IMG/VR virus record: IMGVR_UViG_3300045988_147447
Strand: one strand, 5' to 3'
Source of the DNA: a virus
DNA: 60,874 nucleotides
Shown here one piece after another: positions 29,255 to 60,402 of the stretch. How positions within the stretch are numbered: position 1 is the first letter of the stretch; each line of letters opens with the position of its first letter. Under the pieces are notes generated by a model that did no database searches, had not been told where the DNA came from, and was given only the letters and a program-made list of their open reading frames with translations. Position numbers and translations under genes: made by a program.

Positions 29255-29655
29255 TTCAGCTTGTCTTTAATCCATGAGTCGATAGAAATTCCGTGGTCAA
29301 TATCCTTTGGAATGTCTGCGTCTTCGTCTTCTCGGTCTCCAAAACCTTCTTTTCTTCCTAATGTGGAAAGTAAATAGCGAATCATATACCCATCTGGACG
29401 TTCACGCCATCCGATAAAGTTCCCATTTTCATCTTTCTCAGGGATACCAAGCGCAAGTACACGTGCAGATACAAGGCATTCATCTACCAGAGAACCTCTT
29501 TCGTCGGTGATAGCATCTTTGAACTGGCTGTCTGCTCTGGCCCAATCATACACGGTTTTTCGGGTTACATTGAATACAGCAGCAACCTTAGAGAGATTTC
29601 CACCTGTTTTATGAAGGACCTCTCTGAATTTCGATATGTCTGGCTTCTTTCCCAT
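29251..29655 (-). CDS. terS: terminase small subunit (HTH)
   Basis: 134 aa. HTH reads GGNLSKVAAVFNVTRKTVYDWAR. Overlaps the terL start by 4 nt. Confidence 0.65.
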   Translation of the reverse strand: MGKKPDISKFREVLHKTGGNLSKVAAVFNVTRKTVYDWARADSQFKDAITDERGSLVDECLVSARVLALGIPEKDENGNFIGWRERPDGYMIRYLLSTLGRKEGFGDREDEDADIPKDIDHGISIDSWIKDKLK

Positions 29656-29678
29656 GCGCGCGTATCTGTTTATTTTGA

Positions 29679-30413
29679 TTACTCAATCAATTTCAAAACC
29701 TCTTCTCCTTTGGCAAATTTTTCATCCGTACTGATACCCAACAAATCACAAAAATCTGATTTTGTCTCAAAAGAAGAAAATGAAAGTATTATATAAGCAT
29801 CTTCATCCTGCCTGTGCTGAAATGCAGATTCTTTTACTTGTTGCTTTACCGCTTTCATGTGTTCTTTCTTCTCTTCATATGGCAGTGCAGCATCTTCAGG
29901 AATAGGATTTTTTATACCATCGAAGTCTGTTGGCAATAACAAGTCATCTAATGACTCTGATAAGGAATTGGCATCAACTTCACTTATCGCAAGTATATCA
30001 TTCAACTCATCAGGACTCAACCCGACTTCGGAATAGTCTATATCAGGCAAATAACTCGCGAGCAAATCTAAATCAGGCTTGGTGTTTCCTACTGCCATAT
30101 AAGTAAGCTGTTCCTTTTCTTTTTTTTCGTCAAGGTTCACAACCTCCACTTTTACCTTATAGTCTGTATCAGAAGTACCATCGTATTTGTAATACATATC
30201 CATAGCCTTGATACGCCTGTGCCCATCTATTAGGTTTCCGCTTAATTCATTCCATACAATACCACCAAGAAAACCGACTTTTTGCAGGTTTTTCTTTTGC
30301 AGTCTAATACGTTCATCCGAATGCCTCTTAGGGTTTATCGGATTCAGATTTATCTGCGAACGTTTTATTATTCTTGTCTCACTTTGTTTCAGTTCCTTCA
30401 TAATCATGCTCAA
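29679..30413 (-). CDS. ParB/Srx-like N-terminal domain protein (IbrB-like)
   Basis: GGIVWNELSGNLIDGHRRIKAM is a ParB-type DGHxR box. Paired with a PAPS-reductase-like gene. Confidence 0.65.
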   Translation of the reverse strand: MSMIMKELKQSETRIIKRSQINLNPINPKRHSDERIRLQKKNLQKVGFLGGIVWNELSGNLIDGHRRIKAMDMYYKYDGTSDTDYKVKVEVVNLDEKKEKEQLTYMAVGNTKPDLDLLASYLPDIDYSEVGLSPDELNDILAISEVDANSLSESLDDLLLPTDFDGIKNPIPEDAALPYEEKKEHMKAVKQQVKESAFQHRQDEDAYIILSFSSFETKSDFCDLLGISTDEKFAKGEEVLKLIE

Positions 30414-31065
30414 ACAACAATCGTTCTACCATAGGGTATTCCTCTATAACCTTTTTCAAGTCTGCCGGGAAATTACTTCTGAGCCACAAAAGATAGTTCA
30501 TATCGCTTATATTCGTTCCTGCCGACTGGCTGTTACCGTATTTCTCCGGCTTTATAAGACTTTTCTTTTCGATATAGTTCAGAATATCAACATTTTTGTA
30601 AGCTGATAGGGGATAACATTTCTTTTGCGCTTCATTGATAGCTTCATCTTTGTACGTCCTTAGCATCAACCGTCTGTTCATTGAGTCGGATTGTTTGAAC
30701 CCGAAAAATGCCCAGTCTATATGATATTTTTCTCTGACTATCTCTGTAAGCTGCGCCATACTGTACTGCCTCTGCTTTTCGTTCTTTATACAACCCATGT
30801 AACCACTCTTACGATATGAATATACCGCAAAGTGAGGCACTTGTATGAACTTCACATTACCATATTTCTTGCAGGTGTAGTTGATGTATCTGTTAATATG
30901 CTGCAAGTCCTTGACTACATACATGTAAACACATACTATCTCTTTGAAATAGGGGTGCATAAGATCTAAAAGGGCTATACTGTCCTTACCCGATGCTGAG
31001 TGAAACAATATAACCCTATCTGTCAGCTCTGAGACTTGTTTAATTATGCTTATAGCCTTCTTCAT
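30379..31065 (-). CDS. PAPS-reductase-family PP-loop protein (IbrA/DndC-like)
   Basis: PP-loop FHSASGKDSIALLDL. 228 aa. Overlaps the ParB-like gene. Confidence 0.65.
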   Translation of the reverse strand: MKKAISIIKQVSELTDRVILFHSASGKDSIALLDLMHPYFKEIVCVYMYVVKDLQHINRYINYTCKKYGNVKFIQVPHFAVYSYRKSGYMGCIKNEKQRQYSMAQLTEIVREKYHIDWAFFGFKQSDSMNRRLMLRTYKDEAINEAQKKCYPLSAYKNVDILNYIEKKSLIKPEKYGNSQSAGTNISDMNYLLWLRSNFPADLKKVIEEYPMVERLLFEHDYEGTETK

Positions 31066-31234
31066 GATTAAACAACTCTACCGCCAACTGCTCTGTTGAT
31101 TCTCGCTCTCTGAGCAGCGTTTGTGCCCATTGATTGAAAACGTCCAGCTTCATAGTCCGCTCTTGTTCGGTACTTCTTACCATCCGAGCCTGTTGCGTAA
31201 ACTTCTGGCATAATCCTGAATTTAAATTAAACAA
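31040..31234 (-). CDS. hypothetical small protein
   Basis: 64-aa ORF in the array. It overlaps the downstream start by 26 nt, so the exact start is uncertain. Confidence 0.35.
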   Translation of the reverse strand: MFNLNSGLCQKFTQQARMVRSTEQERTMKLDVFNQWAQTLLRERESTEQLAVELFNHEEGYKHN

Positions 31235-31278
31235 TCTTTTTACCTATATGCAGACAAAGCCGCATAAAGCGGCTTGAC

Positions 31279-31734
31279 TTATTTTAATCCTTCATGGTTA
31301 ATCACTTCACTAATATGCAGGTAATAAAACAATGGAATTTCTTCTGGTGGATTTTTCTTGAACTCTTCTAACTGTTCGTCGAAATCGTGAAAATCAAATT
31401 CTTCGTGCATGAACTTTATGCCCTCTTCAGTAACCTCACCAATGCCGATTTCATCTATCGCCACATCAAGAAACCATGGGGCGCCTGTGCTATAAAAATG
31501 AATTGCTTCTATATCAGTACGCAGAATAGGCTGGCACTCATTTTCACGTCCTTCTTTTCTTAATCTCTCGTTTTCTTCAAGTTGCTTGAAATTTGTAAAC
31601 ATCTTTTCGTATTTAGAACTTAGCTTACGAGCTTCTATAACTTTCTTGCCATTGAGAATATCCAAAGCATTAGCCTTCGTCATTATCAGCGAGTAGGCTT
31701 CTACTTCTTGGCCATTATATTTGATTGTTTTCAT
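31279..31734 (-). CDS. hypothetical protein (possibly ASCH-like)
   Basis: 151 aa. ALDILNGKKVIEARK resembles the ASCH N-terminal strand motif. Weak call. Confidence 0.4.
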   Translation of the reverse strand: MKTIKYNGQEVEAYSLIMTKANALDILNGKKVIEARKLSSKYEKMFTNFKQLEENERLRKEGRENECQPILRTDIEAIHFYSTGAPWFLDVAIDEIGIGEVTEEGIKFMHEEFDFHDFDEQLEEFKKNPPEEIPLFYYLHISEVINHEGLK

Positions 31735-31873
31735 TTGATTATTAATATTTTACTATTCAAAAATAGTATATACTTACCTCAAAACAGAATAAATTGCTAG
31801 TACATACGAAACAATATGCCAATTGTTTCATTTTATACACACGCCAACTTAATGACGTGTGTATGAACGGTTT

Positions 31874-33022
31874 TTAAGCTGCCGATTTACTGTTTACTAA
31901 ATCAAGTATAAACTTTCTACCAAGTTGCGTCCAACACAAGTATTGCTTTGCAACCTGCATACCAGTGGTATCACTTGTATAGGTGTGTGTCCTGTACTTG
32001 TCATAACCTAATCCCCTGTATTTGGCATAAAGCATGTAAACCCCATTCTGGTTGTACAATACGCCTAAATCTTTTAATATCTTGTACAGCTTTTTGGCAC
32101 TCATGCCAAGTTCGTTGGCTATGATATTTGTTGTTATCAATCCTTCGCTTTGAAGGACATTGTCGAAGTAGGCAGCTTTTGGCGCCATCAGTCTGTTCTG
32201 TTCTTCTACCAGATTCTTTTCGGTTTCAAGTACAGATATTCGTTCTTTCTGCCTTTCGATGGTTGAGTTTGCTAACAGGATGGCTTTTGCCATGATTTCT
32301 TCTGGCGTATCATCCGATTTTACTGCCATATAACCGCCTTTAGTTCGGATTTCTTTCAGTATGGCTTTTACGCCTTTCTTGAACTGTTTGGCTATCGGTT
32401 TGCGGCTTTGCATCAGGACTTCATATAAACCGTTCTCTGTGAGCATCCAGACTTGACGGTTCTGACCTGATACGAAAATTGTTCGTACCAGCTTTTCATC
32501 TTCATCAACAGTACCAACCATACGAGATACATCATATTTATCTTGTGATGTTTTTGCATATTCAATCCATTCAGCTACATCTTTAGCAAGAAACAACGGA
32601 TTCTCTGCACTGCCATAAACGGTTAGTTCTTTACCCAACAAGGTAGTTTTCTGTAAAACCTGTATTTCATTCATATTATTTGAATTTAAATTACCAATCT
32701 GATTCTTTACACACTCTGTCAATTCTCTATTATTTGCGAAATACATCAAGGCTATGCCGATTTCTAGATACTGGCCAAAATACATGATTTCTCTTAGTTT
32801 CAATCCGTTTTCGGCTGCATACGTTTTTATTTGCGACATGTTCTTTGATTTCCATTTGCTTATGCTTATCCCGACATCAGAATTAAGCCCCTTGCAAGAA
32901 ATATATATCCTGCCATTGTAGGTACAATAAGAAATTTGCTTATCTTTGTACCGTATGAATTGGGATTCATTTATGGTTTCTTTGTTCATACGCTGTAAAA
33001 CCTGAATTAAACATATCCTCAT
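31874..33022 (-). CDS. antirepressor (Bro-N plus KilA-C type)
   Basis: The middle region NPLFLAKDVAEWIEY is Bro-N-like. The C-terminus TTNIIANELGMSAKKLYKILKDLGVLY is KilA-C/Ant-like. Confidence 0.65.
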   Translation of the reverse strand: MRICLIQVLQRMNKETINESQFIRYKDKQISYCTYNGRIYISCKGLNSDVGISISKWKSKNMSQIKTYAAENGLKLREIMYFGQYLEIGIALMYFANNRELTECVKNQIGNLNSNNMNEIQVLQKTTLLGKELTVYGSAENPLFLAKDVAEWIEYAKTSQDKYDVSRMVGTVDEDEKLVRTIFVSGQNRQVWMLTENGLYEVLMQSRKPIAKQFKKGVKAILKEIRTKGGYMAVKSDDTPEEIMAKAILLANSTIERQKERISVLETEKNLVEEQNRLMAPKAAYFDNVLQSEGLITTNIIANELGMSAKKLYKILKDLGVLYNQNGVYMLYAKYRGLGYDKYRTHTYTSDTTGMQVAKQYLCWTQLGRKFILDLVNSKSAA

Positions 33023-33066
33023 TGATGGCCGGTCAATTCATCAATGAGGATTTTATTTTGACCGTA

Positions 33067-33122
33067 GTAGCAAGCTGGGATTCGAACCCATGCACACCTG
33101 AATGCCTTGCCTTGACCTGCCA
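33067..33122 (-). ncRNA. tRNA-like minihelix fragment (acceptor plus T-arm only)
   Basis: On the minus strand: TGGCAGG ... TGGG-TTCGAAT-CCCA-G-CTTGCTA-C. The acceptor pairs with 2 G-U pairs. No D or anticodon arm is present. Confidence 0.3.
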
Positions 33123-33334
33123 CGCTTGACATATAAAAAAGGCAAATCTTAAAAGAGGTCTGATGTGGCAGTTTACCCCTTGAAAGAAATGCCTTGAATA
33201 TCTTTGCAGCGCAACTGCCACGAAGCGCATTTCATTCTATGGCAAAATTACCAACCGCCAAATGTTTATCCTAAAAATTGCCGTAATCAGAACAAACATT
33301 TGGCTGATTGTTTCAAAATAATCGTGTGAGGGAT

Positions 33335-33670
33335 TTACATTGCAGTTTTCATCATGTTTGGATTAAAGCCTTGCATAAGATTACCTTCGCAGTCAAAAAA
33401 GGTGTCTTCTCGTAGCAGACTACCAATAAGTTCATTTGCAAGCCTAAATATCGGGTAAACTTCATCATTAGAGTCTATCATGCCATCTTTACAACATTTC
33501 TTTTCACTCAGAGAACGCAACAGCCAAAGTGTTTTCATGTAATACTGGTATTTTTCGGGGTTGTTGAACATTCGTTTTAATAACATAATGTTTGATTCAG
33601 TTATTACTGTTTCTTGTTTGTTAGTAAATGTTATCTTGTGCAATTCAGGATTAAAGTCTATAATTCTCAT
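33335..33670 (-). CDS. hypothetical protein
   Basis: 111-aa ORF in the array. Confidence 0.5.
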   Translation of the reverse strand: MRIIDFNPELHKITFTNKQETVITESNIMLLKRMFNNPEKYQYYMKTLWLLRSLSEKKCCKDGMIDSNDEVYPIFRLANELIGSLLREDTFFDCEGNLMQGFNPNMMKTAM

Positions 33671-33696
33671 AAGTCATATTCTTTTAAATATTAATA

Positions 33697-34023
33697 CTAA
33701 GCTATCTTTATAAGGTTGCATTTTTTGAAACAACGCCATTCTTCTTTTTCACAATCGAAATACACCTGGCAGTTATCTGCTGTTTTCTTTGTACCCTTTT
33801 TTTCTGGTATTCTACTACTCATTAAAGTACCGAAAGCCTGACGTAGCGTGCCGTCTGTTTTCTTGAAATAGAACTCAACCACCTTCTTATGAAGCAATGC
33901 ACGAAGTTTGATATTAGTCCACGCACATTTCAACGCCTCACTCATAGAATAACCGTTCTTGCGTACAAATGACCAAGCAAGACTCATAATCTCTTTTAAT
34001 TGATTTCTCTTTTCTATTGCCAT
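33697..34023 (-). CDS. small SH3-barrel-type protein (DUF2693/WYL_2-like), paralog of 57551..57874
   Basis: About 50 percent identical by eye to the 107-aa protein at 57551..57874 (IMSLAW..V.KNG.SMSEA.KCAW.N.KL...F.FKK.DG..R.A.GTL...VYFD.E..E.RCFKK.NL). Confidence 0.6.
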   Translation of the reverse strand: MAIEKRNQLKEIMSLAWSFVRKNGYSMSEALKCAWTNIKLRALLHKKVVEFYFKKTDGTLRQAFGTLMSSRIPEKKGTKKTADNCQVYFDCEKEEWRCFKKCNLIKIA

Positions 34024-34080
34024 AGTTCTTTATATTTTATTAATTATACTACTTCGTTTTATTTGATACTGCAAAGTAAG

Positions 34081-34212
34081 ACTATATAGTTTAATTATGC
34101 AATAGTTACATAGATAATTTATGTTAAATATAAAACTATATAGATTTATTTTTCACGTTTCATTGTATTATATAGTATAAACACCTATATTTGTGCAATA
34201 AAACTATGTAGT
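34081..34212. promoter_or_regulatory. divergent control region with four copies of the palindrome ACTATATAGT
   Basis: 34081-34090 is perfect. 34135-34144, 34167-34176 and 34203-34212 have 1 mismatch each. The last copy abuts the ATG of the HTH gene. Confidence 0.55.
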
Positions 34213-34215
34213 ATT

Positions 34216-34509
34216 ATGGATTTTAGAACAAGGATAAAAGAACTTTGCCAGTCTAAGGGTCTTACTCAAAAAGATTTGGCTGATAAGATGGGTATATCTG
34301 ATATTAGTCTTAATAAGACATTAAGAGGTGATTATCCGCAATTACAATCTTTAGAACGTATTGCAAATGCTTTAGATGTAGACATTTCGGAACTATTTGT
34401 GAGAAATACACCTGATTCAGAAGTAAACGGTTATGTTAAAGTGAAAGGAACTCTTTATGAAGTTCACTCTTTTGAGGATTTAAGGAAGTTATTAGAAATG
34501 GATGTTTAA
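34216..34509 (+). CDS. XRE-family HTH regulator
   Basis: RIKELCQSKGLTQKDLADKMGISDISLNKTLRG is a classic Cro/CI HTH. 97 aa with no peptidase domain. Confidence 0.8.
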   Translation: MDFRTRIKELCQSKGLTQKDLADKMGISDISLNKTLRGDYPQLQSLERIANALDVDISELFVRNTPDSEVNGYVKVKGTLYEVHSFEDLRKLLEMDV

Positions 34510-34528
34510 TCAATAAAACCAAAGTAAA

Positions 34529-35374
34529 ATGAAGAAAATGTTATTTATACTGCCTATACTAGTGGCTTTGTTTTTTGTAGGGTGCAGTAGCGATGGTGAT
34601 GGAGAGCCCGGAGGAAATAGTGGAAATAAAGTTCTGTCTGAAATTGTAATAAACGAACACGAAAAGAAATTTGGCGAGATAAATGAATATGGAGAACTAT
34701 ACGAACAGTATATCTATAATCCAGACGGAACATTGCAAGAAAAAACCACCAATTACTATAATGCTTTATTGGATGATAGGATTGATTACAATTACAAATA
34801 TGAATACGACGACAAAAAGCGTGTAGTGGAAATGAACGAATATACGTTTACTTTGTTTGAAAAAAAACGTAAATATGAATATAACAACATTGATTCCGTG
34901 TCACGCATGTTGGTATATGATGACGATGGAGACCTGAATGAAGAATGGACATACGAATATGATAGTCAAAAAAGATTGATAAAAACAGTAGAAAAAGACA
35001 TTTGGGTTAGTAAAAATTTTGGCTATATAAGCGAATATAGATACGAAGGGAATAACGCTTATATAGAAAAGACAATGCTTAATGACGGTTCTTTGTTCGG
35101 GAACTTTATCTTTGAGTACGACACACATGGAAATCTACTACAAGAAACATATATCAACGGAGATACAGGGAGAGAATCATTAGAGCAAAAATATGAATAC
35201 CAATATGACTCTTCAGGTCGTATTCAAAGAAAATCTAAAAAGGAATCATATTCAGATTCTTGGACATATTATGACTACTTTTATAATGAAGATGGTACAA
35301 TAAATAAAATTTCCGTATCATATAGTTTTAAGAATGATGAATCCGAACTAAGATATAACTATATTTGGAAATAA
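34529..35374 (+). CDS. lipoprotein with YD/RHS-like repeats
   Basis: Signal plus lipobox LFFVGC. Repeated units are YEYDDKKRVVE, YEYDSQKRLIK, FEYDTHGNLLQE and YQYDSSGRIQRK. Confidence 0.6.
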   Translation: MKKMLFILPILVALFFVGCSSDGDGEPGGNSGNKVLSEIVINEHEKKFGEINEYGELYEQYIYNPDGTLQEKTTNYYNALLDDRIDYNYKYEYDDKKRVVEMNEYTFTLFEKKRKYEYNNIDSVSRMLVYDDDGDLNEEWTYEYDSQKRLIKTVEKDIWVSKNFGYISEYRYEGNNAYIEKTMLNDGSLFGNFIFEYDTHGNLLQETYINGDTGRESLEQKYEYQYDSSGRIQRKSKKESYSDSWTYYDYFYNEDGTINKISVSYSFKNDESELRYNYIWK

Positions 35375-35489
35375 CTATTCCATTATGCTTTACAGTTTTT
35401 GGGAGCATAAAAATCTGTCACTTGATAAATTCAATGCTTTATTGTATCTTTGTAGATTAAAATAAAATTCTAGTATAATTAATACGATT

Positions 35490-36551
35490 ATGAAACTGAA
35501 AAGTCTCGAATATGTTACACCTGGATGGTCTTTAGATGGTCTCAATTTGTCAGAAACAAGTCTCATCGTAGGCCGTAATGCTGTTGGAAAATCAAAAACA
35601 ATAGAAGCCTTAAATTCTTTAGTCTCTGTTATACTCCAAACTAAAGAAATTGCTGAGCACGATAATTTTTTCTATAAAATTATTTTTTCAGACAATGATA
35701 CAGAATTGACATATTCATTTGCATGTTTTCAAGGGAATATTACCTTGGAACAGCTAATTGATCATAACGAAAACATCTTAATAGAAAGGAATGAAAACTC
35801 TACTATCTTTTTTAACGACGAAATTAACCCTCCAAGTAATAAACTTACAATCAATGTAAGACGAGATACAAAATTATATCCTCAAATTGAAAAAATAGTA
35901 AATTGGGCTGAAAATTCATATGGGATATTATTTAATCAGATTAATATGTTTCCTAATGGTACCAACCTATTTAGTACTATGTCTAAAGGAGAAAGTATTA
36001 TCCCAATGTTTGAAAAATTAAATGATGATTTGAAACTAAAGGTTCAGGAGGAACTAAATGCTTTAGATTATTCTATTGACGAAATAAAGATTGTAAAAAT
36101 TGGAGATGAGAAATCTGATATAAGAGTCTTACAGATTAATGAAAAAGATGTAAGCACATTTTTATGGGAAGGATTGTTATCTCAAGGAATGCAAAGAACA
36201 CTATACATTCTTGTTCTTTTATTCTATATTGTTTCTCAAAAAAAGAAGACACAGACAATTGTTATTGATGATTTTTGTGAGGGATTAGATTATGATAGAT
36301 CCATAAAATTAGGTAAATACCTATATAAATTCTGTTTAGAAAATAATATACAATTAATTACTACTTCAAACGATAGTTTTTTAATGGACGTTGTCGATTT
36401 GAAATATTGGAATATTTTACAACGTAAAGGCGATAAAGTTACTGCAATAAATATATATAATTCTCCTGAATTATTTGAAGATTTTGAATTTACAGGACTT
36501 AATAATTTTGATTTATTCTCATCTGATTTTATTGCACGACATAAAAAATGA
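35490..36551 (+). CDS. ABC/SMC-type (AAA_21-like) ATPase
   Basis: Walker A VGRNAVGKSKT, signature-like LSQGMQR, Walker B/D-loop TIVIDDFCEGLD. Confidence 0.7.
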   Translation: MKLKSLEYVTPGWSLDGLNLSETSLIVGRNAVGKSKTIEALNSLVSVILQTKEIAEHDNFFYKIIFSDNDTELTYSFACFQGNITLEQLIDHNENILIERNENSTIFFNDEINPPSNKLTINVRRDTKLYPQIEKIVNWAENSYGILFNQINMFPNGTNLFSTMSKGESIIPMFEKLNDDLKLKVQEELNALDYSIDEIKIVKIGDEKSDIRVLQINEKDVSTFLWEGLLSQGMQRTLYILVLLFYIVSQKKKTQTIVIDDFCEGLDYDRSIKLGKYLYKFCLENNIQLITTSNDSFLMDVVDLKYWNILQRKGDKVTAINIYNSPELFEDFEFTGLNNFDLFSSDFIARHKK

Positions 36552-37270
36552 AGAAAGTAGCAGTTTTTGTAGAAGGACAAGCTGAATTAATTTTGGTCAG
36601 AGAATTACTTCTAAAGATGTACGACTACCAAGATATAGGAATCAATTGTTATAACCTGATTTGTGATAATCTGGATGAAGCTCCTTATCAATATGGTGAT
36701 AAAATGGCTCATAACTATTATATGCTTGTAAATGTTGGTAATGACAACTCTGTATTATCTAAAATCTTTACTAGAGCAAATGGATTGCATGAAAAGGGAT
36801 TTACCAAGATTATAGGGTTAAGAGATGTATATGGGGACTTTTACAAGAAAAAAAATAGAGGCGTAAGAAATATAAACTTAGAATTAATTGAAAAATTTAG
36901 AAATTCAGCTCAAAAGGAAATAGACGCTAAAAACCTGGCTCAATATATAAAATTACATTTTGCAATAATGGAGGTTGAAGCATGGTTTTTAGGATTTAAC
37001 ATATTTGAACGTATTGATGGCACATTGTCAAATGATTTTATTAAGTCTAAGCTAAATTATGATTTGGAGAATGATGATCCAGAGATTACCTATTATCATC
37101 CAGCAAGAATTATGGGAGATATTTATGGCCTGATTGGATCAAAATATGACAAACATGAAAGTGATGTATCCTCCCTTGTGAGTTGTCTTGAAAAAGAAGA
37201 TTATAATAACTTAATAGAAAGTGTTAAATGCTCAACATTTACATCTTTCGTTCAAGAATTGCTAAATTGA
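36548..37270 (+). CDS. TOPRIM/OLD-like nuclease candidate (DUF4276/DUF4435-like)
   Basis: The N-terminus VAVFVEGQAELILVREL carries a TOPRIM-type glutamate strand. Later motifs are IIGLRDVYGD and MEVEAWFLG. ATGA overlap with the ATPase gene. Confidence 0.5.
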   Translation: MKKVAVFVEGQAELILVRELLLKMYDYQDIGINCYNLICDNLDEAPYQYGDKMAHNYYMLVNVGNDNSVLSKIFTRANGLHEKGFTKIIGLRDVYGDFYKKKNRGVRNINLELIEKFRNSAQKEIDAKNLAQYIKLHFAIMEVEAWFLGFNIFERIDGTLSNDFIKSKLNYDLENDDPEITYYHPARIMGDIYGLIGSKYDKHESDVSSLVSCLEKEDYNNLIESVKCSTFTSFVQELLN

Positions 37271-37278
37271 TAGTGAAC

Positions 37279-37311
37279 AAAAAGCCGGAAGCATAACGTT
37301 CCGGCTTTTTT
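37279..37311. terminator. bidirectional terminator
   Basis: AAAAAGCCGGAA-gcataacg-TTCCGGCTTTTTT. Confidence 0.7.
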
Positions 37312-37333
37312 ACTTGATTAGTTCTTTTACTAA

Positions 37334-37567
37334 TTACCTATCATTAAGTCCCATGTAAGTACGTTTTGAAACTTGTGTATTCCAACTGGTTCCACTTCTA
37401 TTAAAGCTCCCAAGATACCTGCCTGCAATCCTATTTACAAGATTATTAGGATTGTCAGAGTTACTTCCATAACGCTGTTGAGCTAATCTGTCGGCTTGTC
37501 GAACTATTTCCCAACCTGATTTTGTTCTTCTTCTGACTCGGCTTTAAAATTTAAATTTGTTAGACAT
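37334..37567 (-). pseudogene. ORF interrupted by an in-frame TAA at codon 8
   Basis: ATG 37567, MSNKFKF, TAA (37544-37546), then 69 further sense codons in the same frame (SRVRRRTKSGWEIVRQADRLAQQRYGSNSDNPNN...) with no alternative start. Confidence 0.4.
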
Positions 37568-37611
37568 AAAAATTTAAGCATAGGGACTTTATCCCCATTA
37601 GAAACATTCTG

Positions 37612-38049
37612 TTACTTGATTAGTCCTTTGGATTTCAATCTTTCTACGATTTGGCAGTAAAGGTACTCTATATCCTGCCGGAAATCCTTATACTGCTGGT
37701 AGATAAAGGAAACATCAGCGATATTGTTTGATATTACACACGGAGAAACATCCGGGAACACGCCGGAAATTTCTGCTCGGATACCGTTCGGCAGCCGTCC
37801 GCCGGCAAGCACACTAGGGGCGAACAAGAACAACACAATGAAGAGGAACTTCTTTCGCTGGGTAACACTTTCCGGATTGGGCGGACAATCTGCCCCGGAA
37901 AGTATCTCCCTGAACCACTCATAAATCTCCGGGATGAGAGAAAAATCAGTCAGGATAGGGGAGGATAACTCCTGCTCGCGTTCTGATAATCTTGATTTCT
38001 GTTCACGTATTGATTTCAACTCCACGATTGATGAAAATTCTTTTGTCAT
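37612..38049 (-). CDS. hypothetical protein
   Basis: 145-aa ORF. Confidence 0.5.
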   Translation of the reverse strand: MTKEFSSIVELKSIREQKSRLSEREQELSSPILTDFSLIPEIYEWFREILSGADCPPNPESVTQRKKFLFIVLFLFAPSVLAGGRLPNGIRAEISGVFPDVSPCVISNNIADVSFIYQQYKDFRQDIEYLYCQIVERLKSKGLIK

Positions 38050-39143: not shown

Positions 39144-39458
39144 ATGAATGAATTTGATTCTTATAAGAATGATTTTGGTTTTGAAATAGGCTCTGGATTC
39201 TCAGGAAACTCTGATTACATGAAGGCTCTGGATGAGAAGAAAAGACGCGCTCTCATGGAAGAGCAATACAACTTTCTTCAAATTCAGAAATCAGAAATCC
39301 TCGCCCAACAGAAATATCGTGAGTTGCATCAGAAGGAAATCCTTGCTCAACAAAAATACCGCGAAGAGCAACGTAAAGGGGCCAATTTCGATAAATGGCT
39401 TCTAATTTTTAATACTATTATAGCCATTGCATCATTATTGGTATCTATATTCAAATAA
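39144..39458 (+). CDS. tail-anchored coiled-coil protein with an internal tandem repeat
   Basis: EILAQQKYRELHQK / EILAQQKYREEQRK duplication. C-terminal TM reads WLLIFNTIIAIASLLVSIF. Confidence 0.5.
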   Translation: MNEFDSYKNDFGFEIGSGFSGNSDYMKALDEKKRRALMEEQYNFLQIQKSEILAQQKYRELHQKEILAQQKYREEQRKGANFDKWLLIFNTIIAIASLLVSIFK

Positions 39459-39544
39459 AATACCCGGTCACCGCCACAAAGCAGTTACCGGGTATTCACA
39501 AAGCACTGACAAGGGTTGTCAGTAAGATTGGAAAATTTTAATGA

Positions 39545-40099
39545 TTACCGTACCAGTCTAACTGGTAATTTAAATCCGCAAAACACGCCAATTTTTGAGT
39601 TGCTACTAGAAGTGAGACATGCACTCGTTTTATAATTAGCCTTATTATCATTTAACAACCAAAAATAGGAAGAATCTTGATTCATAATAACATTAAAACC
39701 AATCTTACCCGTTTTATTAAAAGTCATCATAGTGCCATTAACACCAAGAAAATACACTCCACTGTATTGGTTAAGATCATCCTTAAAACCTCTTCTCAAA
39801 CAAGCTAATATCAACTCATTATATTGTTCTATTGTTGGTATTTTATATTGCAAAGCTTCATCATAAGTAAAATAACAGATTTCTCCATTTTCATCTCTCA
39901 AATAATCAGATGCCCATAAAGTCCCGCTCGACAAACCAAGGTCAACAAATTCCGCATCATTACATCCTATTTGAGCATTTTCTTGACCGCTCTTATAACC
40001 ATCTTTGTATCCATCTATATATGCCTGAGCAATGGCCTTTGTTATAGCTTCATTTGCTTTCCCATCAGCATAAGAGTTTGCTTTTTCTTGAATATCCAT
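39545..40099 (-). CDS. hypothetical protein
   Basis: 184 aa. The FVDLGLSSGTLWASDY motif is common in Bacteroidales paralog families. Function unknown. Confidence 0.5.
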   Translation of the reverse strand: MDIQEKANSYADGKANEAITKAIAQAYIDGYKDGYKSGQENAQIGCNDAEFVDLGLSSGTLWASDYLRDENGEICYFTYDEALQYKIPTIEQYNELILACLRRGFKDDLNQYSGVYFLGVNGTMMTFNKTGKIGFNVIMNQDSSYFWLLNDNKANYKTSACLTSSSNSKIGVFCGFKLPVRLVR

Positions 40100-40228
40100 A
40101 TTAGTTCAAATTATCATAGTTTACACTTGTTACAAACTTCGTAAGTTTTGTTTGAATGAACAAATAAAAAGGAAAATTTTATCCATTTAAGCCCATTATG
40201 ATTTGTCTAGAATTATAATCACGATTAT

Positions 40229-41722
40229 GTGTTTATAACTTATTTATTTTTATTTGTTGATTCTCATATTTTACTTATAATTTTGTTGAAACGATACAAA
40301 CTTATAGTTATGGAACTTATACCAATAAAAAACGAACTTAAATCTTTCAAAGACCATCTTGATATTAACGAACGTACCGTTTTCTCAGCCAAATTTGGAG
40401 ACGGGAAAACATACTTTTTAAATGAATTCAAAAAGAAATATGGAGATAGTTATGAATTTATTACCATATATCCGGTTAATTATCAGATAGCTGATAATAA
40501 AGAGGTTTTTGAGTATATTAAAAGAGATATTCTTATACAAATGGTTTCAAAGAAAATGATAGAGCCATCTTATGAAATCCCTGATTCACTAATATTCCAA
40601 TTCTTTATTATGCAGAATTCTGACTCATTCTTGGGTAATCTATTAAAAATACTACCAAGTCTAGGTGTTCCAGAACAAACAGCATCTCTTTTCTTAGCTG
40701 GATACCATGCTTTAAATTGGTCGAAAAAGATGGCTAAAAAATATAAAGAATATAAGGACGCAATTCAAAGCCAAGATGAGAATCAAATTATAGCAACCTT
40801 TTTAGAATCTTTTTCAAAGAGAATAGGAAGTCCTTATGAGATTGATTTAATCACTCAAATTATAATTGATAATATTCAATGGTTCTGTAAAAGCAACAAC
40901 AAAAAAGTTATTTTAATCATCGAAGACTTGGACCGTATGGATCCTGCTCATCTATTCAGAATTTTAAATATTTTCTCTGCACATATTGACAGAGTATACC
41001 AATATCAAAACAGTAGTACTCAAAAAGAAGAAGATACTACATATTCAGAATTATTGCCAAATAAATTTGGATTTAACAATATCATAACAGTATTTGATTA
41101 TAATAAAACTAAAAGTATTTTCCAGCATTTTTATGGACAAGAGGCTAACTATGATGGTTATATCAACAAATTCACATCCCATCAACCATTTTTCTATTCT
41201 ATAGATGAAATAGCACGTGAATATTTATATAAAGTTATATCTGAAAAATGTTGCATAACAAAAGAATCTATCAGGCATATTTCAAAACAAATTAACAACA
41301 AATTTGATTCATTGTCAGTAAGAGATGTAAATACGATTTTAAACGGAATAGATTTATATATTCAAGAAGATATTTACAAATCAGGCACTACGGAATTTAA
41401 TACAAAGTCTCCTCTAACTTATACTATTGCAATGTTTAAACTATTAGGTTACTCAAATACAGATATCAGGAGATATATTTTAAGCTTGTCAAAATCGGAT
41501 TTATTAAACTGTATAAATGTGTTTTTATATATCCGTCCAGATGTTTCAGCTAATTCCTTTACATTTCATGATATATCATATATTATTAGAATTCCTTCAA
41601 GCGATACTATCAATAAAATTCAAATAAAACCTGGGCATGACCATAGTGGATTTCATTTAATATTAACAGAAGATGATATAAATAAATGTTTAGACAGAGC
41701 ATTTGATTATATCATCAAATAG
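40229..41722 (+). CDS. KAP-family P-loop NTPase (probable true start at Met 40310)
   Basis: Walker A FSAKFGDGKTYF. KAP-type Walker B VILIIEDLDRMDPAHLFRILN. AT-rich. A single gene on its own strand. Confidence 0.6.
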   Translation: MFITYLFLFVDSHILLIILLKRYKLIVMELIPIKNELKSFKDHLDINERTVFSAKFGDGKTYFLNEFKKKYGDSYEFITIYPVNYQIADNKEVFEYIKRDILIQMVSKKMIEPSYEIPDSLIFQFFIMQNSDSFLGNLLKILPSLGVPEQTASLFLAGYHALNWSKKMAKKYKEYKDAIQSQDENQIIATFLESFSKRIGSPYEIDLITQIIIDNIQWFCKSNNKKVILIIEDLDRMDPAHLFRILNIFSAHIDRVYQYQNSSTQKEEDTTYSELLPNKFGFNNIITVFDYNKTKSIFQHFYGQEANYDGYINKFTSHQPFFYSIDEIAREYLYKVISEKCCITKESIRHISKQINNKFDSLSVRDVNTILNGIDLYIQEDIYKSGTTEFNTKSPLTYTIAMFKLLGYSNTDIRRYILSLSKSDLLNCINVFLYIRPDVSANSFTFHDISYIIRIPSSDTINKIQIKPGHDHSGFHLILTEDDINKCLDRAFDYIIK

Positions 41723-44287: not shown

Positions 44288-45316
44288 TCACTTATTAATT
44301 ACTATTGCTATAGTTTTAGTTCCAGTTCCGCTTTCCTTGAAAGTGCCTTCTTCAATCTCGAATTTCTTCCCTCCATTATCCTCCAGCCATTGTCTAAAAT
44401 CCTTACACTCAGATTCACTTCCAAATTCCCAGTGAGGACCAGTTATTGCAGCCAGGACACCGCCGGGATTTAAACACTCATACATACGCCTTACATGCCG
44501 AATGTCCTGATTTTTACTGAATGGTGGATTTGCTATAATCTTATCATACTGTGCAATATCACACTTCGTGAAGTCATCTCCAAGAATACGTATATTATCC
44601 TTTTTCGATAGAATTTCTTTATTCTCAGGCATAAGTTCATAGCAATCTACAATTACGTCCGGACAGCTTCGATGAATCGCATCTATGATAGCACCAGTAC
44701 CAGCACTGGGTTCCAGAACCTTTTCATCATCGTGCACACCACCGGCCAACATAACCAGCCAGTCGGCTACTTCTGGAGGTGTTGCAAAAAACTGGAAGTC
44801 CTGCTGTAAATTGCACCGCTTACCTTCATGAAGAATATTGAATACTCGTTCTGCATTAAATGGAAATGTAAATCCTTGCACCTTGCCACCCATCCAGCTA
44901 CCTCCGGCTTCTTCAATCCATTTTTTAGCTTCTGCGTATGATTTCTTATTAAATTGTACTTGAGGAAGTTTCATCACATTATTTTCAAGCGTACAATGTT
45001 TAAGAATATCCTCAACACTCCATTTACTTCCAGAATCATCCTTATTGCGCTTGTTGTTCTGCTCCAGTTCGTCACACCCCAACAGACGGTTCAACGACTT
45101 CTGTACTTTCACACTTATTTCTGCCATCCTTGACATCCATTGCAGGATTGCAGTCATAAACTCCAAATCCACATGTCCGGTCTCATCGTAAATGTTTTCC
45201 CGGTCTATCAATTCCGGAAGGTTATCCATGAACATGAAGCTACCATACAACGCTTCGATTAAATTCTTTTTTTTGTTCGTCATAACTTTTCTGTAAATAA
45301 ATTCTTGTCGTATCAA
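44288..45316 (-). CDS. N6-adenine DNA methyltransferase (start probably at Met 45235, just after the recombinase stop)
   Basis: Motif I LEPSAGTGAIID and motif IV IIANPPFSKN. Confidence 0.8.
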   Translation of the reverse strand: MIRQEFIYRKVMTNKKKNLIEALYGSFMFMDNLPELIDRENIYDETGHVDLEFMTAILQWMSRMAEISVKVQKSLNRLLGCDELEQNNKRNKDDSGSKWSVEDILKHCTLENNVMKLPQVQFNKKSYAEAKKWIEEAGGSWMGGKVQGFTFPFNAERVFNILHEGKRCNLQQDFQFFATPPEVADWLVMLAGGVHDDEKVLEPSAGTGAIIDAIHRSCPDVIVDCYELMPENKEILSKKDNIRILGDDFTKCDIAQYDKIIANPPFSKNQDIRHVRRMYECLNPGGVLAAITGPHWEFGSESECKDFRQWLEDNGGKKFEIEEGTFKESGTGTKTIAIVINK

Positions 45317-46352
45317 TACTTCCGTGTCCTAAAAGGTCTGCCAACTGTACCACGTCATTGTTCTTTTTCAGATACATTTTAGCGAAGAAATGCCGAAAAG
45401 CATGAGGATGCATCTTGCTTCTATCTATTCCGCACTTATCGCCCCAGTCTTTCATTGATTGGCACAAGCTTCTCTGTGTCAACCTTCCGCACTTACCTAC
45501 TGCGACATATCCAGTCTTGTGACTCTCCTTTACGTATGCTTTTACTTCCGCCTGTAACTGCCTGCTGAAAAAGAATCTCCGGTACTTGTTTCCCTTTCCC
45601 TTTAGAGTGACTTCACCGGAAAGGATGTCCTCCCATTTGAATTGGAAGAACTCGCTTACCCTCGCCCCGGTTGTAGCCAGTATCTTGATGAAGAAGTACC
45701 TGTCCCTGTTAGGACAAGTTTTCAAATACTCAAGCAGCCGGTTGTATTCGGCTTCTGTCGGAACATTCTCCGTATTCAACTCCTTCTTGAACTTCGGGCG
45801 CTTCAACTCTATTGGCTTTTTCATCCATTTGCTGAAACGTTCAAGTGCGGTAATTCGTAGGCGTATTGTTCTGGGAGACAATCCCTCATCCTCCAGCATC
45901 CGTACAAAACGCTTGTAATTGTCAACTGATACCTCGTTGGCGTATTCGAAATATTTCTTAATTGAAAATGAATATATTTCAAGAGTGTGTGGAGAGTAAT
46001 CTTCATCCTGCGTAAGGTAATACACAAATTCATTCATCAGTTTCATGTTCTTTTCAGAAACATCGCTTAGCTTCTCCAGAGGTTTAACTGATTTCTCCTT
46101 TCGTGTGCGTGAATATCCAATACCAAGAAAATTAAGGAACCCACATAGAGCATCTTTAATGTATGGCTTATCAGATAATTCAACTGCATTTTCTCTGATA
46201 TAAGCCTTGTATCCTTTACGGTTCACCTGATAATCACTTTCAAGGAATAACTTTACAGCTTTAATGCTTTTACCAATAACTTCATAGCTTTTATCGGTAC
46301 TATACAAGTGGGATACGTATTCTATAAATATTTTTTTATTTACGTCTTCCAT
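45240..46352 (-). CDS. second tyrosine recombinase (XerC/D- or Rci-like)
   Basis: SAM-like N-domain (YSPHTLEIYSFSIKKYFEY). Catalytic residues in ATTGARVSEF, HPHAFRHFFA and LLGHGSIDTTRIY. Confidence 0.85.
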   Translation of the reverse strand: MEDVNKKIFIEYVSHLYSTDKSYEVIGKSIKAVKLFLESDYQVNRKGYKAYIRENAVELSDKPYIKDALCGFLNFLGIGYSRTRKEKSVKPLEKLSDVSEKNMKLMNEFVYYLTQDEDYSPHTLEIYSFSIKKYFEYANEVSVDNYKRFVRMLEDEGLSPRTIRLRITALERFSKWMKKPIELKRPKFKKELNTENVPTEAEYNRLLEYLKTCPNRDRYFFIKILATTGARVSEFFQFKWEDILSGEVTLKGKGNKYRRFFFSRQLQAEVKAYVKESHKTGYVAVGKCGRLTQRSLCQSMKDWGDKCGIDRSKMHPHAFRHFFAKMYLKKNNDVVQLADLLGHGSIDTTRIYLQKSYDEQKKEFNRSVVW

Positions 46353-56297: not shown

Positions 56298-56319
56298 AGT
56301 TTAAGTATTTGATTGTTTG

Positions 56320-56395
56320 CTGGCAGAACGGGACTCGAACCCGTGACTTCCATGCTAACCCTTACATGGTGTTCTACCGCCTGAACTATCTGCCA
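56320..56395 (-). tRNA. phage-encoded tRNA with a non-canonical 10-nt (or 6 bp plus 8 nt) anticodon loop; isotype undetermined
   Basis: TGGCAGA-TA-GTTC-AGGCGGTA-GAAC-A-CCATG-TAAGGGTTAG-CATGG-AAGTC-ACGGG-TTCGAGT-CCCGT-TCTGCCA-G. All four stems pair perfectly. Confidence 0.7.
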
Positions 56396-56923: not shown

Positions 56924-57299
56924 AACCGTGTGTATTAAATATCGTTCCCGTGGGCGTTCCGGTGGTTGCCTTACTGCTTATCAAAGGTCTGGTAAGCCAC
57001 GGGTATATATAGTTCATGCTGGTGTCTAATCAGTGAAGATTGTCTTTGTAGCCGACCTACGGCCACCTGCAATCGTATAAGTGTCTTTTTGTTATCTGTG
57101 TGATTCGTATGCTGCGTTTGCTTAGTGCAGCCCTTTACTCATACTCTTTTCACACAGCCGTTATCGCTACTCAGTCGTCCGTTTCACGTCAGGCTTAACG
57201 GTAAGCCTAAATTTCCATCATGTCAAAGAACCAATCAAGTAGAACCCTGCCCGATTCTCGCTATCGGTTGCCGTTCAGTCCGTCAGCAGGGTAGGTGAG
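56924..57299 (-). ncRNA. ORF-free, GC-richer, hairpin-dense region: candidate structured RNA
   Basis: Minus-strand helices: ACCCTGC/GCAGGGT enclosing CCGAT/ATCGG; AGGCTTA-ccgt-TAAGCCT; GCCG-taggt-CGGC; CCCGTGG/CCACGGG enclosing CTTAC/GTAAG. No plausible ORF. Confidence 0.35.
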
Positions 57300-57955: not shown

Positions 57956-58031
57956 ATATCACTGATATTACAGTGAAAATATCAGTGATATTAACTTTAT
58001 TTTAGTTTTACCGAAATAATATTACTGATAT
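57956..58031. promoter_or_regulatory. immunity operators: three copies of the 13-bp palindrome ATATCA-N-TGATAT
   Basis: atatcactgatat at 57956-57968, atatcagtgatat at 57979-57991, and atattactgatat at 58019-58031. The last has 1 mismatch and overlaps the cI ATG. Confidence 0.6.
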
Positions 58032-58668
58032 GTACGATTTAAAAGGATTCAGACAAGCATTTGGACTTACCCAAAAGAATATTGCTGATATTCTTGAATG
58101 TGGTCAAGCTAATGTTTCAGGTATGGAAAAGTCTATGAGGGATTTAGAACCTGAACAATATAGAAAGTTGTGTGCTCGATTTGATGCAGCCTCTGTTGAC
58201 AAGTTTAAGGTCTCAGATTTTATCATTGATAATAAGAAAACAGAAACTGAACCTGTAATAAGTTATACTAATGGTGTACCTTACTATAATGTAGATTTCA
58301 TAGGAGGATTTGATATTGTCCTAAATGACCAGACTGCAAAGCCGGAATACTTGATAGACTTTAAGAAATACAATGAAGCTACTTGCTGGTGTAATGTTAC
58401 AGGCCATTCAATGGAACCTGAGATAACTCATGGAGATATTATTGCGTTAAAGAAAATAGAAGATAAGTCTTTTCTTCCATTAGGTGAAGTGTATGCAATA
58501 GTGACAACCAACGGAATGCGAACAATCAAGAGATTAGGCCCTTCAACCGATCCGAAATGCTATACGCTGGTTCCTACAAATAAATCTCCGGAATATGGTA
58601 TTCAGGAACTTCCTAAGAATATGATAGAACATATATATCAAGTTCTTGGCTGTATGAAAAGATTATAA
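58030..58668 (+). CDS. cI: CI-type repressor (XRE HTH plus S24 LexA-like peptidase)
   Basis: HTH FGLTQKNIADILECGQANVSGMEK. S24 Ser/Lys dyad context VTGHSMEPEITHGDIIALKK ... MRTIKRL. Confidence 0.85.
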   Translation: MYDLKGFRQAFGLTQKNIADILECGQANVSGMEKSMRDLEPEQYRKLCARFDAASVDKFKVSDFIIDNKKTETEPVISYTNGVPYYNVDFIGGFDIVLNDQTAKPEYLIDFKKYNEATCWCNVTGHSMEPEITHGDIIALKKIEDKSFLPLGEVYAIVTTNGMRTIKRLGPSTDPKCYTLVPTNKSPEYGIQELPKNMIEHIYQVLGCMKRL

Positions 58669-58677
58669 ATAATTTAT

Positions 58678-59739: not shown

Positions 59740-60388
59740 TGACATTAATGCTGAATCAACTAGAAGATTAACAGAAGCCAAATCTTTAGTACTATTAATT
59801 AAAAATGAAGATTTGATGCGGTCATTAAATTTAGATTCTAAGGTACATAAAGGTGCATTCTTTGTGTTATTATATGGGGCTTTAGAATATACGATTACTG
59901 CAGTTGTGCAAAGATGTATTAGTATCTTAAATAAAAGACAATATGACATACATGCATTGAAACCAACATTATATTCGCTTATATTTCACAAAGAATGTAA
60001 CGCTATAATGGATGCAAGGGATAAAAAATGGACTAAAAGATATGAATTATTTTCTCAGCTTGGAGGAACTAAAATAGCAAACATTGAAGATTGTTTGTTT
60101 CCTACAAGTATTGGCAATATAAAATATAGTCAATTAGAGTCCATCTGGAATACTTTTGGGATTACTCATGATGTCGTTACAGATGTAAAAATTAAAGGAC
60201 GACTTGCAGCTTTAGCTGATAATCGAAATGCAATAGCACATGGAAGAGAATTGGCCTCTGTTATAGGAGGACGATATACAATCAGTGAAATAGAATGCAT
60301 TTATAATGATATTAATACATACTGCAGTTATATCATTACAGTTTTTGAAGACTATATAACAAATGAAATGTATTTAATCGGCCATTAA
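59732..60388 (+). CDS. HEPN-like nuclease (R-x4-H)
   Basis: ALADNRNAIAHGRE contains RNAIAH. 218 aa. Overlaps the DUF262 gene by 8 nt. Confidence 0.55.
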   Translation: MFSDINAESTRRLTEAKSLVLLIKNEDLMRSLNLDSKVHKGAFFVLLYGALEYTITAVVQRCISILNKRQYDIHALKPTLYSLIFHKECNAIMDARDKKWTKRYELFSQLGGTKIANIEDCLFPTSIGNIKYSQLESIWNTFGITHDVVTDVKIKGRLAALADNRNAIAHGRELASVIGGRYTISEIECIYNDINTYCSYIITVFEDYITNEMYLIGH

Positions 60389-60402
60389 TAAAATTCTGTG
60401 TT

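Follow-up and report, generated by a model that had tools for sequence, protein, structure and literature searches.

The IMG/VR virus record IMGVR_UViG_3300045988_147447, a stretch of 60,874 nucleotides (nt) referred to here at its full length as the window, carries a block of four plus-strand genes at positions 34216-37270: a helix-turn-helix (HTH) regulator, a lipoprotein, an ABC-type ATPase of 353 amino acids (aa) and, last, a 240-aa protein that we call the partner. Which of these genes form a unit, and what might that unit do for the phage that carries it? The original prediction, made from the letters alone, had read them as a four-gene island built around a PARIS- or OLD-like pair. Synteny indicated instead that the functional unit is the ATPase with its partner, not the four genes. 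This pair is probably, though far from certainly, an anti-phage, superinfection-exclusion or abortive-infection module that joins an ABC ATPase to a Toprim-superfamily effector, of the HEC-01 or Mad3-Mad4-like class.

The window, at about 60.8 kb, is a complete, circularly closed genome, the first 36 nt of which recur at its end, and belongs to a temperate siphovirus that encodes an integrase, tape measure, major head, portal, terminase and a Bro/ANT antirepressor. Its nearest isolated relative is Bacteroides phage BS-TP2 (B. salyersiae), with a TerL 91% identical; megablast of the island and of the 29-40 kb region against GenBank phages gave no match. The four AT-rich open reading frames (ORFs) were all present as originally described, with a GC content of 0.28-0.30 over 34-37 kb against about 0.37-0.47 in the flanks, and the six motifs reported for the last two proteins (GRNAVGKS, LSQGMQR, IVIDDFCEGLD, VAVFVEGQAE, RDVYGD and EVEAWFL) were all found.

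The two-gene unit and its boundaries

Homologs of the partner were collected by a pattern scan that kept one genome per species, and the resulting 80 genome loci came mostly from Bacteroidota, with some from Desulfobacterales, Chloroflexota, Planctomycetota, Patescibacteria and others. An ATPase homolog lay directly upstream on the same strand in every one of the 80, across several phyla, and the same pair was found in five distant viral loci (27-34% identity). The two genes overlapped in 65 of 84 loci, 52 of these by the 4-nt ATGA type also seen in the window, which bore out the pairing of the last two genes as conserved and translationally coupled. The lipoprotein was found in none of the 80 genome loci, and the HTH regulator gave one weak match only, about 1.8 kb upstream and on the opposite strand. 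Moreover, the lipoprotein is present in 24 viral contigs, 20 of which are without the pair. The proposed coupling of the pair to the lipoprotein and to a dedicated XRE regulator, here a gene of the phage backbone, was therefore not upheld; within the supposed four-gene neighbourhood it was the pair that proved conserved, and not the lipoprotein or the regulator.

Comparison with sister phages suggested that positions ~35380-37315 form a mobile and self-contained cassette, in which the two genes have a promoter and a terminator of their own. In cassette-less sister phages homology to the window breaks at 35379-35382 and resumes at 37269-37613, with the right junction of the cassette at 37269-37315. 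Two sister contigs, L085 and L086, share only 35368-37315 with the window, at 88% identity, and have a different lipoprotein and a membrane protein between the regulator and the pair. Ahead of the ATPase gene, a CTTG box (35421-35424) is followed after a 20-nt spacer by TATCTTTG (35445-35452), which fits TAnnTTTG, the consensus of the Bacteroidetes -7 promoter box. This arrangement is kept upstream of the ATPase across diverged relatives and is the predicted promoter of the pair. At the other end, the bidirectional terminator (A5-GCCGGAA-8 nt-TTCCGGC-T6) folds into a strong hairpin (dG -18.5 kcal/mol, z = -4.55), and none of 200 shuffles folded equally well, confirming the closing terminator that had been noted.

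Joint action of all four products, from the XRE regulator and the YD-repeat lipoprotein to the ATPase and the TOPRIM-like protein, would find support in the arrangement of the genes, which are adjacent, co-oriented and AT-rich with no strong terminator between them, and in several sister contigs in which the whole block is 97-100% conserved. However, in addition to the counts above, in four sister contigs (L085, L086, L099 and L102) the stretch from the regulator to the pair holds other genes or no gene at all, the pair has its own conserved promoter region, and the regulator and its operators swap independently of the genes downstream. Such a four-gene system is very improbable, and we regard it as largely refuted by synteny and presence/absence.

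The cassette shows presence/absence polymorphism in a slot whose other occupants include known defence genes. In L121 the slot measures only 126 nt, and this contig was therefore taken as the empty site. Over 29534-35382, L106 and the window agree at 98% identity, yet L106 carries an AbiC/AbiP-like gene (Pfam 1.2e-20, PADLOC 3e-17) and a gene for a 227-aa protein in the slot, while L107 and L109 carry a gene with a DpnII/MboI restriction endonuclease (REase) domain (5.8e-55). Small membrane or coiled-coil proteins are encoded there in other sister contigs. The pair is followed by Peptidase_C14 and SLFN/AlbA_2 genes in integrated relatives, found on contigs of 80-470 kb. BS-TP2 is without the cassette and has its regulator with a single 129-aa gene, HicAB lying alongside; tblastn of the partner against 50,697 GenBank phage genomes gave no match. 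Among the sister phages, presence, absence or replacement of the cassette was independent of the lipoprotein.

From the terminator to the next gene (37312-37611), ~300 nt hold no ORF of 40 aa or more. They are kept in the cassette-less contigs L111 and L128, where homology resumes at 37269-37280, and not in others (37525 or 37611); this stretch could be a remnant, or else a small element that is non-coding. A gene of 350-361 aa that fuses an HTH to a Peptidase_M78 (ImmA/IrrE-like) domain lies on the minus strand of L085 (8766-9851), L102 (8766-9830) and L103 (7173-8225), directly past the cassette terminator in the first two and further downstream in the third; it is another variable regulatory or cargo element of this hotspot.

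The ATPase, its partner and their proposed function

The larger protein is an SMC/Rad50/PtuA-like ABC ATPase of the AAA_21/AAA_15 group. It has a Walker A motif (G28-x4-GKS35), a Q-loop (Q50), the signature LSQGMQR (S231/G233/R236), a Walker B motif IVIDD261 with E264, and the D-loop GLD267, and all five elements are invariant in the family. Pfam returned AAA_21 at 2.1e-8 (35 bits against a cut-off of 27) and SMC_N at 3.9e-6. An AlphaFold2 (AF2) model, with a pLDDT score (predicted local distance difference test) of 86, showed beta-rich inserts and short helices, and its top Foldseek matches were PtuA (Septu/retron), Rad50 and SMC heads (E about 1e-11, probability 1.0, template modelling [TM] score about 0.5 for PtuA). 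The best PADLOC model was AbiLi (7.5e-22), followed by AriA (AAA_21-like; 7.7e-13), HEC-01A (1.1e-6), mad3 (2.6e-5) and NsnB (6.9e-5). Across the family, the AbiLi, AriA and HEC-01A models each matched 32 of 32 members, HEC-01A with a best score of 9.6e-15, and mad3 matched 20 (best 2.4e-9).

The recF model of NCBIfam also matched, over the signature and Walker B region (E=1.2e-7), and the Walker B sequence DD..E.LD resembles that of RecF. As the pairing of an ATPase with a Toprim protein is formally alike, the cassette could be read as serving phage DNA metabolism, the pair mediating recombination or repair in the way of RecF (SMC-like ATPase) and RecR (Toprim). However, the match scored 31 bits against a cut-off of 172, and a Pfam scan of the partner showed no RecR, zinc-finger or helix-hairpin-helix (HhH) signature. 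Furthermore, the cassette is accessory, AT-rich, on the opposite strand, present or absent among near-isogenic phages, and outside the replication and recombination module. A RecFR-like role is hardly credible and was rejected on the recF score, the partner signatures and the accessory status.

Conservation within the ATPase is uneven across the family: entropy is lowest over residues 261-353 (0.6-1.0), which makes up the most conserved part, and highest over 41-100 and 141-220 (about 2.0-2.2). Against L102, nucleotide identity is 58-66% across 35600-36300 and then 89-99% from about 36300 through the partner gene. The recombination breakpoint at about 36300 corresponds to residue ~270, just past Walker B, the N-terminal ~270 codons having been exchanged relative to L102. 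In the model of the monomer, pLDDT is low over the C-terminal tail, which is invariant. These patterns suggest contact with the partner through the C-terminal third and a specificity-determining role of the N-terminal and insert regions.

By its profile matches, the partner is a divergent DUF4276/HEC-01B protein and not a DUF4435/AriB one. The Pfam model DUF4276 (PF14103) matched over profile positions 1-109 of 192 only, scoring 23.7 bits (E=6.3e-5) where the cut-off is 30.2, the PADLOC model HEC-01B matched at 1.2e-5, and OLD-like_TOPRIM of Pfam reached a sub-threshold E=0.02. In the partner family, DUF4276 (best 9.4e-9) and HEC-01B (best 7e-7) each matched 37 of 37 aligned relatives, OLD-like_TOPRIM 31 and mad4 10 (best 2.2e-4), the window protein itself being without a mad4 match. 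Neither DUF4435 (PF14491) nor AriB was matched at E≤1 in Pfam or PADLOC, by the window protein or by any of the 37 relatives, and no AbiLii or RloB match appeared in the Pfam and PADLOC searches. A whole-library profile search with the partner returned ~900 clusters at 50% identity (E≤1e-10); among the matches listed, nearly all were full-length, at ~240 aa. Many of the relatives carry a precomputed DUF4276 assignment or the source name 'DUF4276 family protein', and 'AAA family ATPase' is likewise a source name among relatives. The motifs had been associated originally with DUF4276 and DUF4435; the first was recovered in all relatives, with the window protein sub-threshold, and the second was not.

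The invariant residues of the partner are E9-G10-x2-E13, G64-N65-D66, D93, E142-x-E144-x-W146, D177-P-E179, Y200-x-K202, C34 and C228. Its AF2 model (pLDDT 94.9, predicted TM score [pTM] 0.91) joins an N-terminal alpha/beta core, ordered beta1-alpha-(beta hairpin)-beta2-alpha-beta3-alpha-beta4, to a C-terminal domain of helices. Toprim proteins have a beta-alpha core with the sheet order 2-1-3-4, in which beta1 is followed by a conserved Glu and beta3 by DxD. A relaxed alignment of the partner with P2 Old was collinear, with E9/E13 at E398/E402, VNVGND at VAVDGKG and LRD93 at DCD455, and this register suggests that the partner has the OLD-type EGxxE and the second DxD Asp. Structure-based work has assigned DUF4276 to the Toprim superfamily, with Mad4 as a DUF4276 homolog (PMC12065111). 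In addition, HEC-01B was found to be structurally TOPRIM-like, with a metal site common with BpOLD (bioRxiv 10.1101/2024.01.29.577857), and DUF4276 is listed as an effector domain of AAA15/21 ATPase defence systems (PMC11464382). Because of these published assignments, our own tests being weak, the partner is probably a Toprim-superfamily effector, putatively a nuclease.

If the pair is an anti-phage module, the cassette, in the cargo slot of a BS-TP2-like temperate Bacteroides siphovirus, would probably be expressed in the lysogen and would protect the host against competing phages, as PARIS, OLD, Septu and Gabija suggest by analogy. On ATP, the ATPase would dimerise and hold the partner through its conserved C-terminal third, while its variable N-terminal and insert regions would sense a trigger from the infecting phage. 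The partner would then be released or activated and could act on nucleic acid as a metal-dependent nuclease (E9/E13, D93, E142/E144).

Several points weigh against this proposal. In the ATPase, the place of the catalytic Glu, next to the Walker B Asp, is taken by Asp, and the H-loop lacks its histidine (S293-N-D295), where P2 Old has DEPE...THS; hydrolysis may therefore be slow. Foldseek searches of the partner against PDB and BFVD returned nothing at E≤1e-3 and no TOPRIM, OLD or AriB in the top 50, the matches being generic alpha/beta folds only (guanylate kinase, GPN GTPase; TM≤0.36), and PDB sequence searches with profiles of the full-length partner and of its N-terminal core gave nothing relevant. 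Full-length hhalign comparison of the partner with a 35-sequence P2 Old family alignment was not significant (1.3%), and the ATPase gave 9.7% against this family (Walker A only); against the Old TOPRIM region alone, the partner aligned only at the beta1 motif, VAVFVEGQAELILV to VLLVEGKTETNVL, with P about 1e-3 and a probability of 12-20%. Of the glutamate strand that had been called TOPRIM-type, E9 and E13 are present; the fold comparison was weak. Moreover, the DxD motif is degenerate (L91-R-D93), its first Asp being Leu throughout the family, and all PADLOC and Pfam matches of the partner are weak (E 1e-5 to 1e-9). The sampled cellular homologs lie in no obvious defence islands, so that this line of support failed: in gut Bacteroidales the pair sits inside capsular-polysaccharide loci, between glycosyl- and acyl-transferase genes, and in Duncaniella between fimbrial genes and metH (among these loci, L130 5929-7738 and L133/L134 5970-7741), which are unusual surroundings for a putative defence module. 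Finally, no member of this ATPase-DUF4276 clade has a phenotype, and the only HEC-01 representative tested gave no protection against the phages tried (bioRxiv 10.1101/2024.01.29.577857).

The lack of a structural TOPRIM match despite a very confident model and the Leu in place of the first DxD Asp, together with the invariant C34, C228, DPE177-179 and YxK200-202 outside the Toprim core, would also fit a defence system with a non-nuclease partner, which binds or sequesters nucleic acid or protein or uses a different hydrolytic chemistry. We consider this unlikely, since the invariant EGxxE, D93 and ExE come after strands beta1, beta3 and beta4, a placement shared with the metal sites of OLD-type Toprim, and DUF4276 and HEC-01B were placed with TOPRIM by structure (PMC12065111; bioRxiv 10.1101/2024.01.29.577857). 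Similarly, the occurrence of an isolated two-gene unit in unrelated contexts (prophage, capsule loci, fimbrial locus, plasmids) could point to a selfish addiction or toxin-antitoxin (TA)-like stabilisation module, in which the ATPase would restrain a toxic partner and retain the prophage or locus; the Pfam label of AAA_21 is 'putative AbiEii toxin, type IV TA', and HicAB adjoins the same slot in BS-TP2. However, the alternative cargo of the slot is mainly Abi- or REase-like, and the N-terminal diversification of the ATPase fits the sensing of variable invaders better. Addiction is thus a distinctly unlikely explanation, although TA and abortive-infection roles are not mutually exclusive.

The regulator, the lipoprotein and the rest of the genome

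Features of the cassette and of the genes and sites ahead of it are collected in Table 1.

Table 1. Coordinates of the features of the four-gene block in the window
Feature	Position	Strand	Basis or remark
ACTATATAGT array (putative operators)	34081-34090 (perfect); 34135-34144, 34167-34176, 34203-34212 (one mismatch each)		divergent intergenic region
XRE/Cro-C1-type HTH regulator, 97 aa	34216-34509	+	ORF
Lipoprotein, 281 aa	34529-35374	+	ORF; signal peptide and lipobox FFVGC read from sequence
Left end of cassette, promoter-like region	35380-35489	+	conserved boxes
ABC/SMC-type ATPase, 353 aa	35490-36551	+	ORF
DUF4276-like partner, 240 aa	36548-37270	+	ORF; start overlaps ATPase stop by ATGA
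Bidirectional intrinsic terminator	37279-37311		closes cassette

The regulator matched Pfam HTH_3 (3e-12) and HTH_26 (2e-11), and an RstR-family model of NCBIfam at 7.7e-11, under its cut-off. The palindrome ACTATATAGT occurs in the 60.9-kb genome once without and three times with a single mismatch, all four copies being confined to 34081-34212, that is, to the 132 nt upstream of the regulator gene, so the four-copy operator array of the original prediction was recovered; ACTATRTAG gave 5 matches against 0.75 expected. A Bacteroidetes-type -7 box, TATATTTG, lies ahead of the gene at 34186-34193. In the sister phage L001, 97% DNA identity with the window begins only at 34341, within the regulator gene, and the DNA-reading N-terminus and the intergenic region therefore differ; at the same place L001 has the repeats ACGATATT..AATATCGT instead of ACTATATAGT. 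This co-variation of N-terminus and repeats supports binding of the regulator to the upstream repeats as putative operators. Ahead of the same lipoprotein, the sister phages hold at least four identity classes of the regulator (96-98, 66-68, 58 and 46-48%), and BS-TP2 has an equivalent small regulator, gp46. These comparisons point to a phage-backbone regulator that heads the cargo slot whatever the cargo and is not part of the two-gene module, and to an exchangeable immunity-type element of the phage whose N-terminal DNA-reading part is mosaic.

The regulator gene is divergent from a minus-strand operon at 31874-34023 that encodes a WYL_2 protein, a 111-aa protein and the Bro-N/ANT antirepressor, and in sister phages this operon is swapped along with the HTH N-terminus and the operators. 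By analogy, the layout of regulator and antirepressor may be reminiscent of a secondary immunity switch (immI, Mnt/Ant-like). The regulator could also be the main CI repressor of the prophage; the genome has a separate S24-peptidase/HTH repressor-like gene at 58030-58668.

The second gene had been described as a YD/RHS-repeat lipoprotein. The lipoprotein assignment stood, given the signal peptide and lipobox, whereas its YD-like repeats are weak, RHS_repeat of Pfam (18.2 bits against a cut-off of 22, E=0.0034) and TIGR01643 (14.9 against 15.8) being both sub-threshold; a search against PDB sequences gave no match. Its distribution indicates an independent moron, separate from the two-gene module, and the protein is possibly a surface or exclusion protein.

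The phage had been called otherwise minus-strand, which is incorrect, since further AT-rich plus-strand blocks lie at 39144-41722 and 58030-60741. The latter adjoins the integrase in the circular genome and is headed by a 212-aa S24-peptidase/HTH (LexA/CI-like) repressor-like gene (58030-58668), followed by genes for a GmrSD_N/DUF262 protein (353 aa, E=4.9e-30; 58678-59739) and a HEPN RiboL-PSP protein (218 aa, 3.1e-15), and a 112-aa ORF. The DUF262 and HEPN genes behind the repressor may form a defence pair. A 359-aa putAbiC (abortive infection) homolog (1919-2998, minus strand; E=1.5e-11) also adjoins the integrase; its gene lies in the most AT-rich stretch of the genome (GC 0.26), and the AbiC/AbiP-like gene in the cassette slot of L106 is related to it.

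A second variable cargo site, 39545-41722, lies ~2 kb downstream of the cassette and holds a 184-aa gene and an AT-rich 497-aa KAP-family P-loop NTPase-like gene (weak, E=0.0019); the same place in L001 (11305-14262) carries a 985-aa HD-CE/HATPase_c protein. Separate from the integrase at 142-1416, a second tyrosine-recombinase/integrase-like gene of 370 aa (PHROG integrase 2.4e-36) lies in the early/replication region (45240-46352, minus strand). The minus strand at 56319-56395 holds a tRNA-like gene (52 bits with Rfam tRNA) whose anticodon loop is enlarged to 10 nt, UAAGGGUUAG; ARAGORN could assign no anticodon to it and reported 'gggt'. The gene may encode a suppressor or frameshift tRNA of an unusual type or act as a decoy, or it may be a degenerate copy. 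PARIS, which cleaves tRNA, is known to be countered by tRNAs of viruses (PMC11464382). Near the right-end regulatory region, 57244-57292 (minus strand) matches the Rfam DUF2693-FD small RNA (sRNA) motif perfectly, with 76 bits where the gathering score is 44.5.

Comparison with known defence systems

The resemblance to OLD, Gabija and PARIS noted at the outset applies broadly, as the pair combines an ABC-type ATPase with DUF4276, which publications place in the Toprim superfamily. PARIS, like the window cassette, is a two-gene combination of an ABC ATPase with a Toprim-superfamily effector that is often carried by phages or satellites, and the window ATPase matches the AriA model. The diversification of this ATPase also resembles that of AriA clades proposed to recognise different triggers. 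However, AriA is a 55 kDa ABC ATPase and AriB a 35 kDa DUF4435 TOPRIM nuclease (PMC11464382), whereas both window proteins are smaller, as had been supposed (353 and 240 aa), and the effector is a DUF4276 and not a DUF4435 protein. AriA has IS1/IS2 coiled-coil insertions that build a hexameric scaffold; the modelled window ATPase shows beta-rich inserts and short helices. Membership of PARIS was ruled out, and the idea of a PARIS-type module dropped, because DUF4435 and AriB gave no match in Pfam or PADLOC at E≤1.

AbiL, whose AbiLi is the best PADLOC match of the ATPase, is counted among ABC ATPase plus TOPRIM systems (PMC11464382); it was excluded as the partner has no AbiLii (RloB-type) match. 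P2 Old, class 1 OLD and GajA share with the window pair an ABC ATPase and the EGxxE...D motif set, and also a prophage-encoded, lysogenic-conversion setting (P2 old and tin). They differ in that each is one polypeptide that has the canonical ATPase motifs DEPE and THS as well as DxD, whereas the window has the two functions in separate genes; OLD and Gabija were set aside because the genes are not fused, hhalign gave 1-20%, and no GajB-like helicase is adjacent. PtuA of Septu and retrons is the best structural match of the ATPase, but it pairs with the HNH nuclease PtuB, and the window pair has no HNH domain. Menshen (NsnABC) comprises NsnA, a ParB-DUF262 protein, NsnB, an ABC ATPase with a DUF3696 tail, and NsnC, an inPIN domain plus effector (PMC12065111). 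It was excluded in view of the weak NsnB match, the absence of an inPIN N-domain from the partner and the absence of an adjacent DUF262, the sole one lying 21 kb away (58678-59739).

The window pair resembles Mad3-Mad4 of the methylation-associated defence system (MADS), in that mad3 and mad4 models match part of the ATPase and partner families (20 of 32 and 10 of 37), with weak mad8 similarity also seen alongside in PADLOC. MADS, however, is a multi-gene system with a methyltransferase and Mad1-8, and was ruled out since neither a methyltransferase nor other Mad genes are present in or beside the cassette and the mad3, mad8 and mad4 similarities are weak.

HEC-01, 'Hma-embedded candidate 01', consists of an ABC ATPase (HEC-01A) and a TOPRIM-like protein (HEC-01B) (Payne et al., bioRxiv 10.1101/2024.01.29.577857). 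No other catalogued system has models that match both window proteins; the scores are weak (1.1e-6 for A, 1.2e-5 for B), and HEC-01 has the same adjacent two-gene order and logic. As the matches are weak, the window pair appears to belong to a divergent, mainly Bacteroidota clade. Unlike HEC-01, which is embedded in Hma (helicase-methylase-ATPase), the cassette is phage-borne and stands alone among phage genes; the Hma context reflects the way HEC-01 was discovered and is not a strict requirement. The idea of a distinct variant was accordingly abandoned, because both proteins match this existing PADLOC candidate and their relatives already bear the names DUF4276 and AAA ATPase.

ABC ATPase plus DUF4276 pairs have been catalogued as HEC-01, as Mad3-Mad4 and as some Menshen effectors, none with a demonstrated activity, trigger, target or solved structure. 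The discrete cassette, the Abi/REase slot and the exchange of ATPase alleles give circumstantial support to this class as a real defence module. We speculated further, and hold it doubtful, that the Bacteroidota clade is a functionally distinct, phage-borne branch of HEC-01/DUF4276, in which the exchangeable N-terminal two-thirds of the ATPase sets the trigger and the C-terminal third and tail tether an effector whose fold and DxD are unlike those of every solved TOPRIM. If this were true, near-isogenic gut Bacteroides prophages (the window against the L106/L121 type) would be the first natural system for the activity, trigger and target of a DUF4276 effector, and a defence hotspot like that of P2/P4 would be defined in Bacteroides temperate phages. 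By its profile matches and gene order, the cassette is a phage-borne, divergent member of a known candidate class, not a new kind of system, and its boundaries, the Bacteroides prophage hotspot and the near-isogenic natural comparisons are useful products that make this class tractable.

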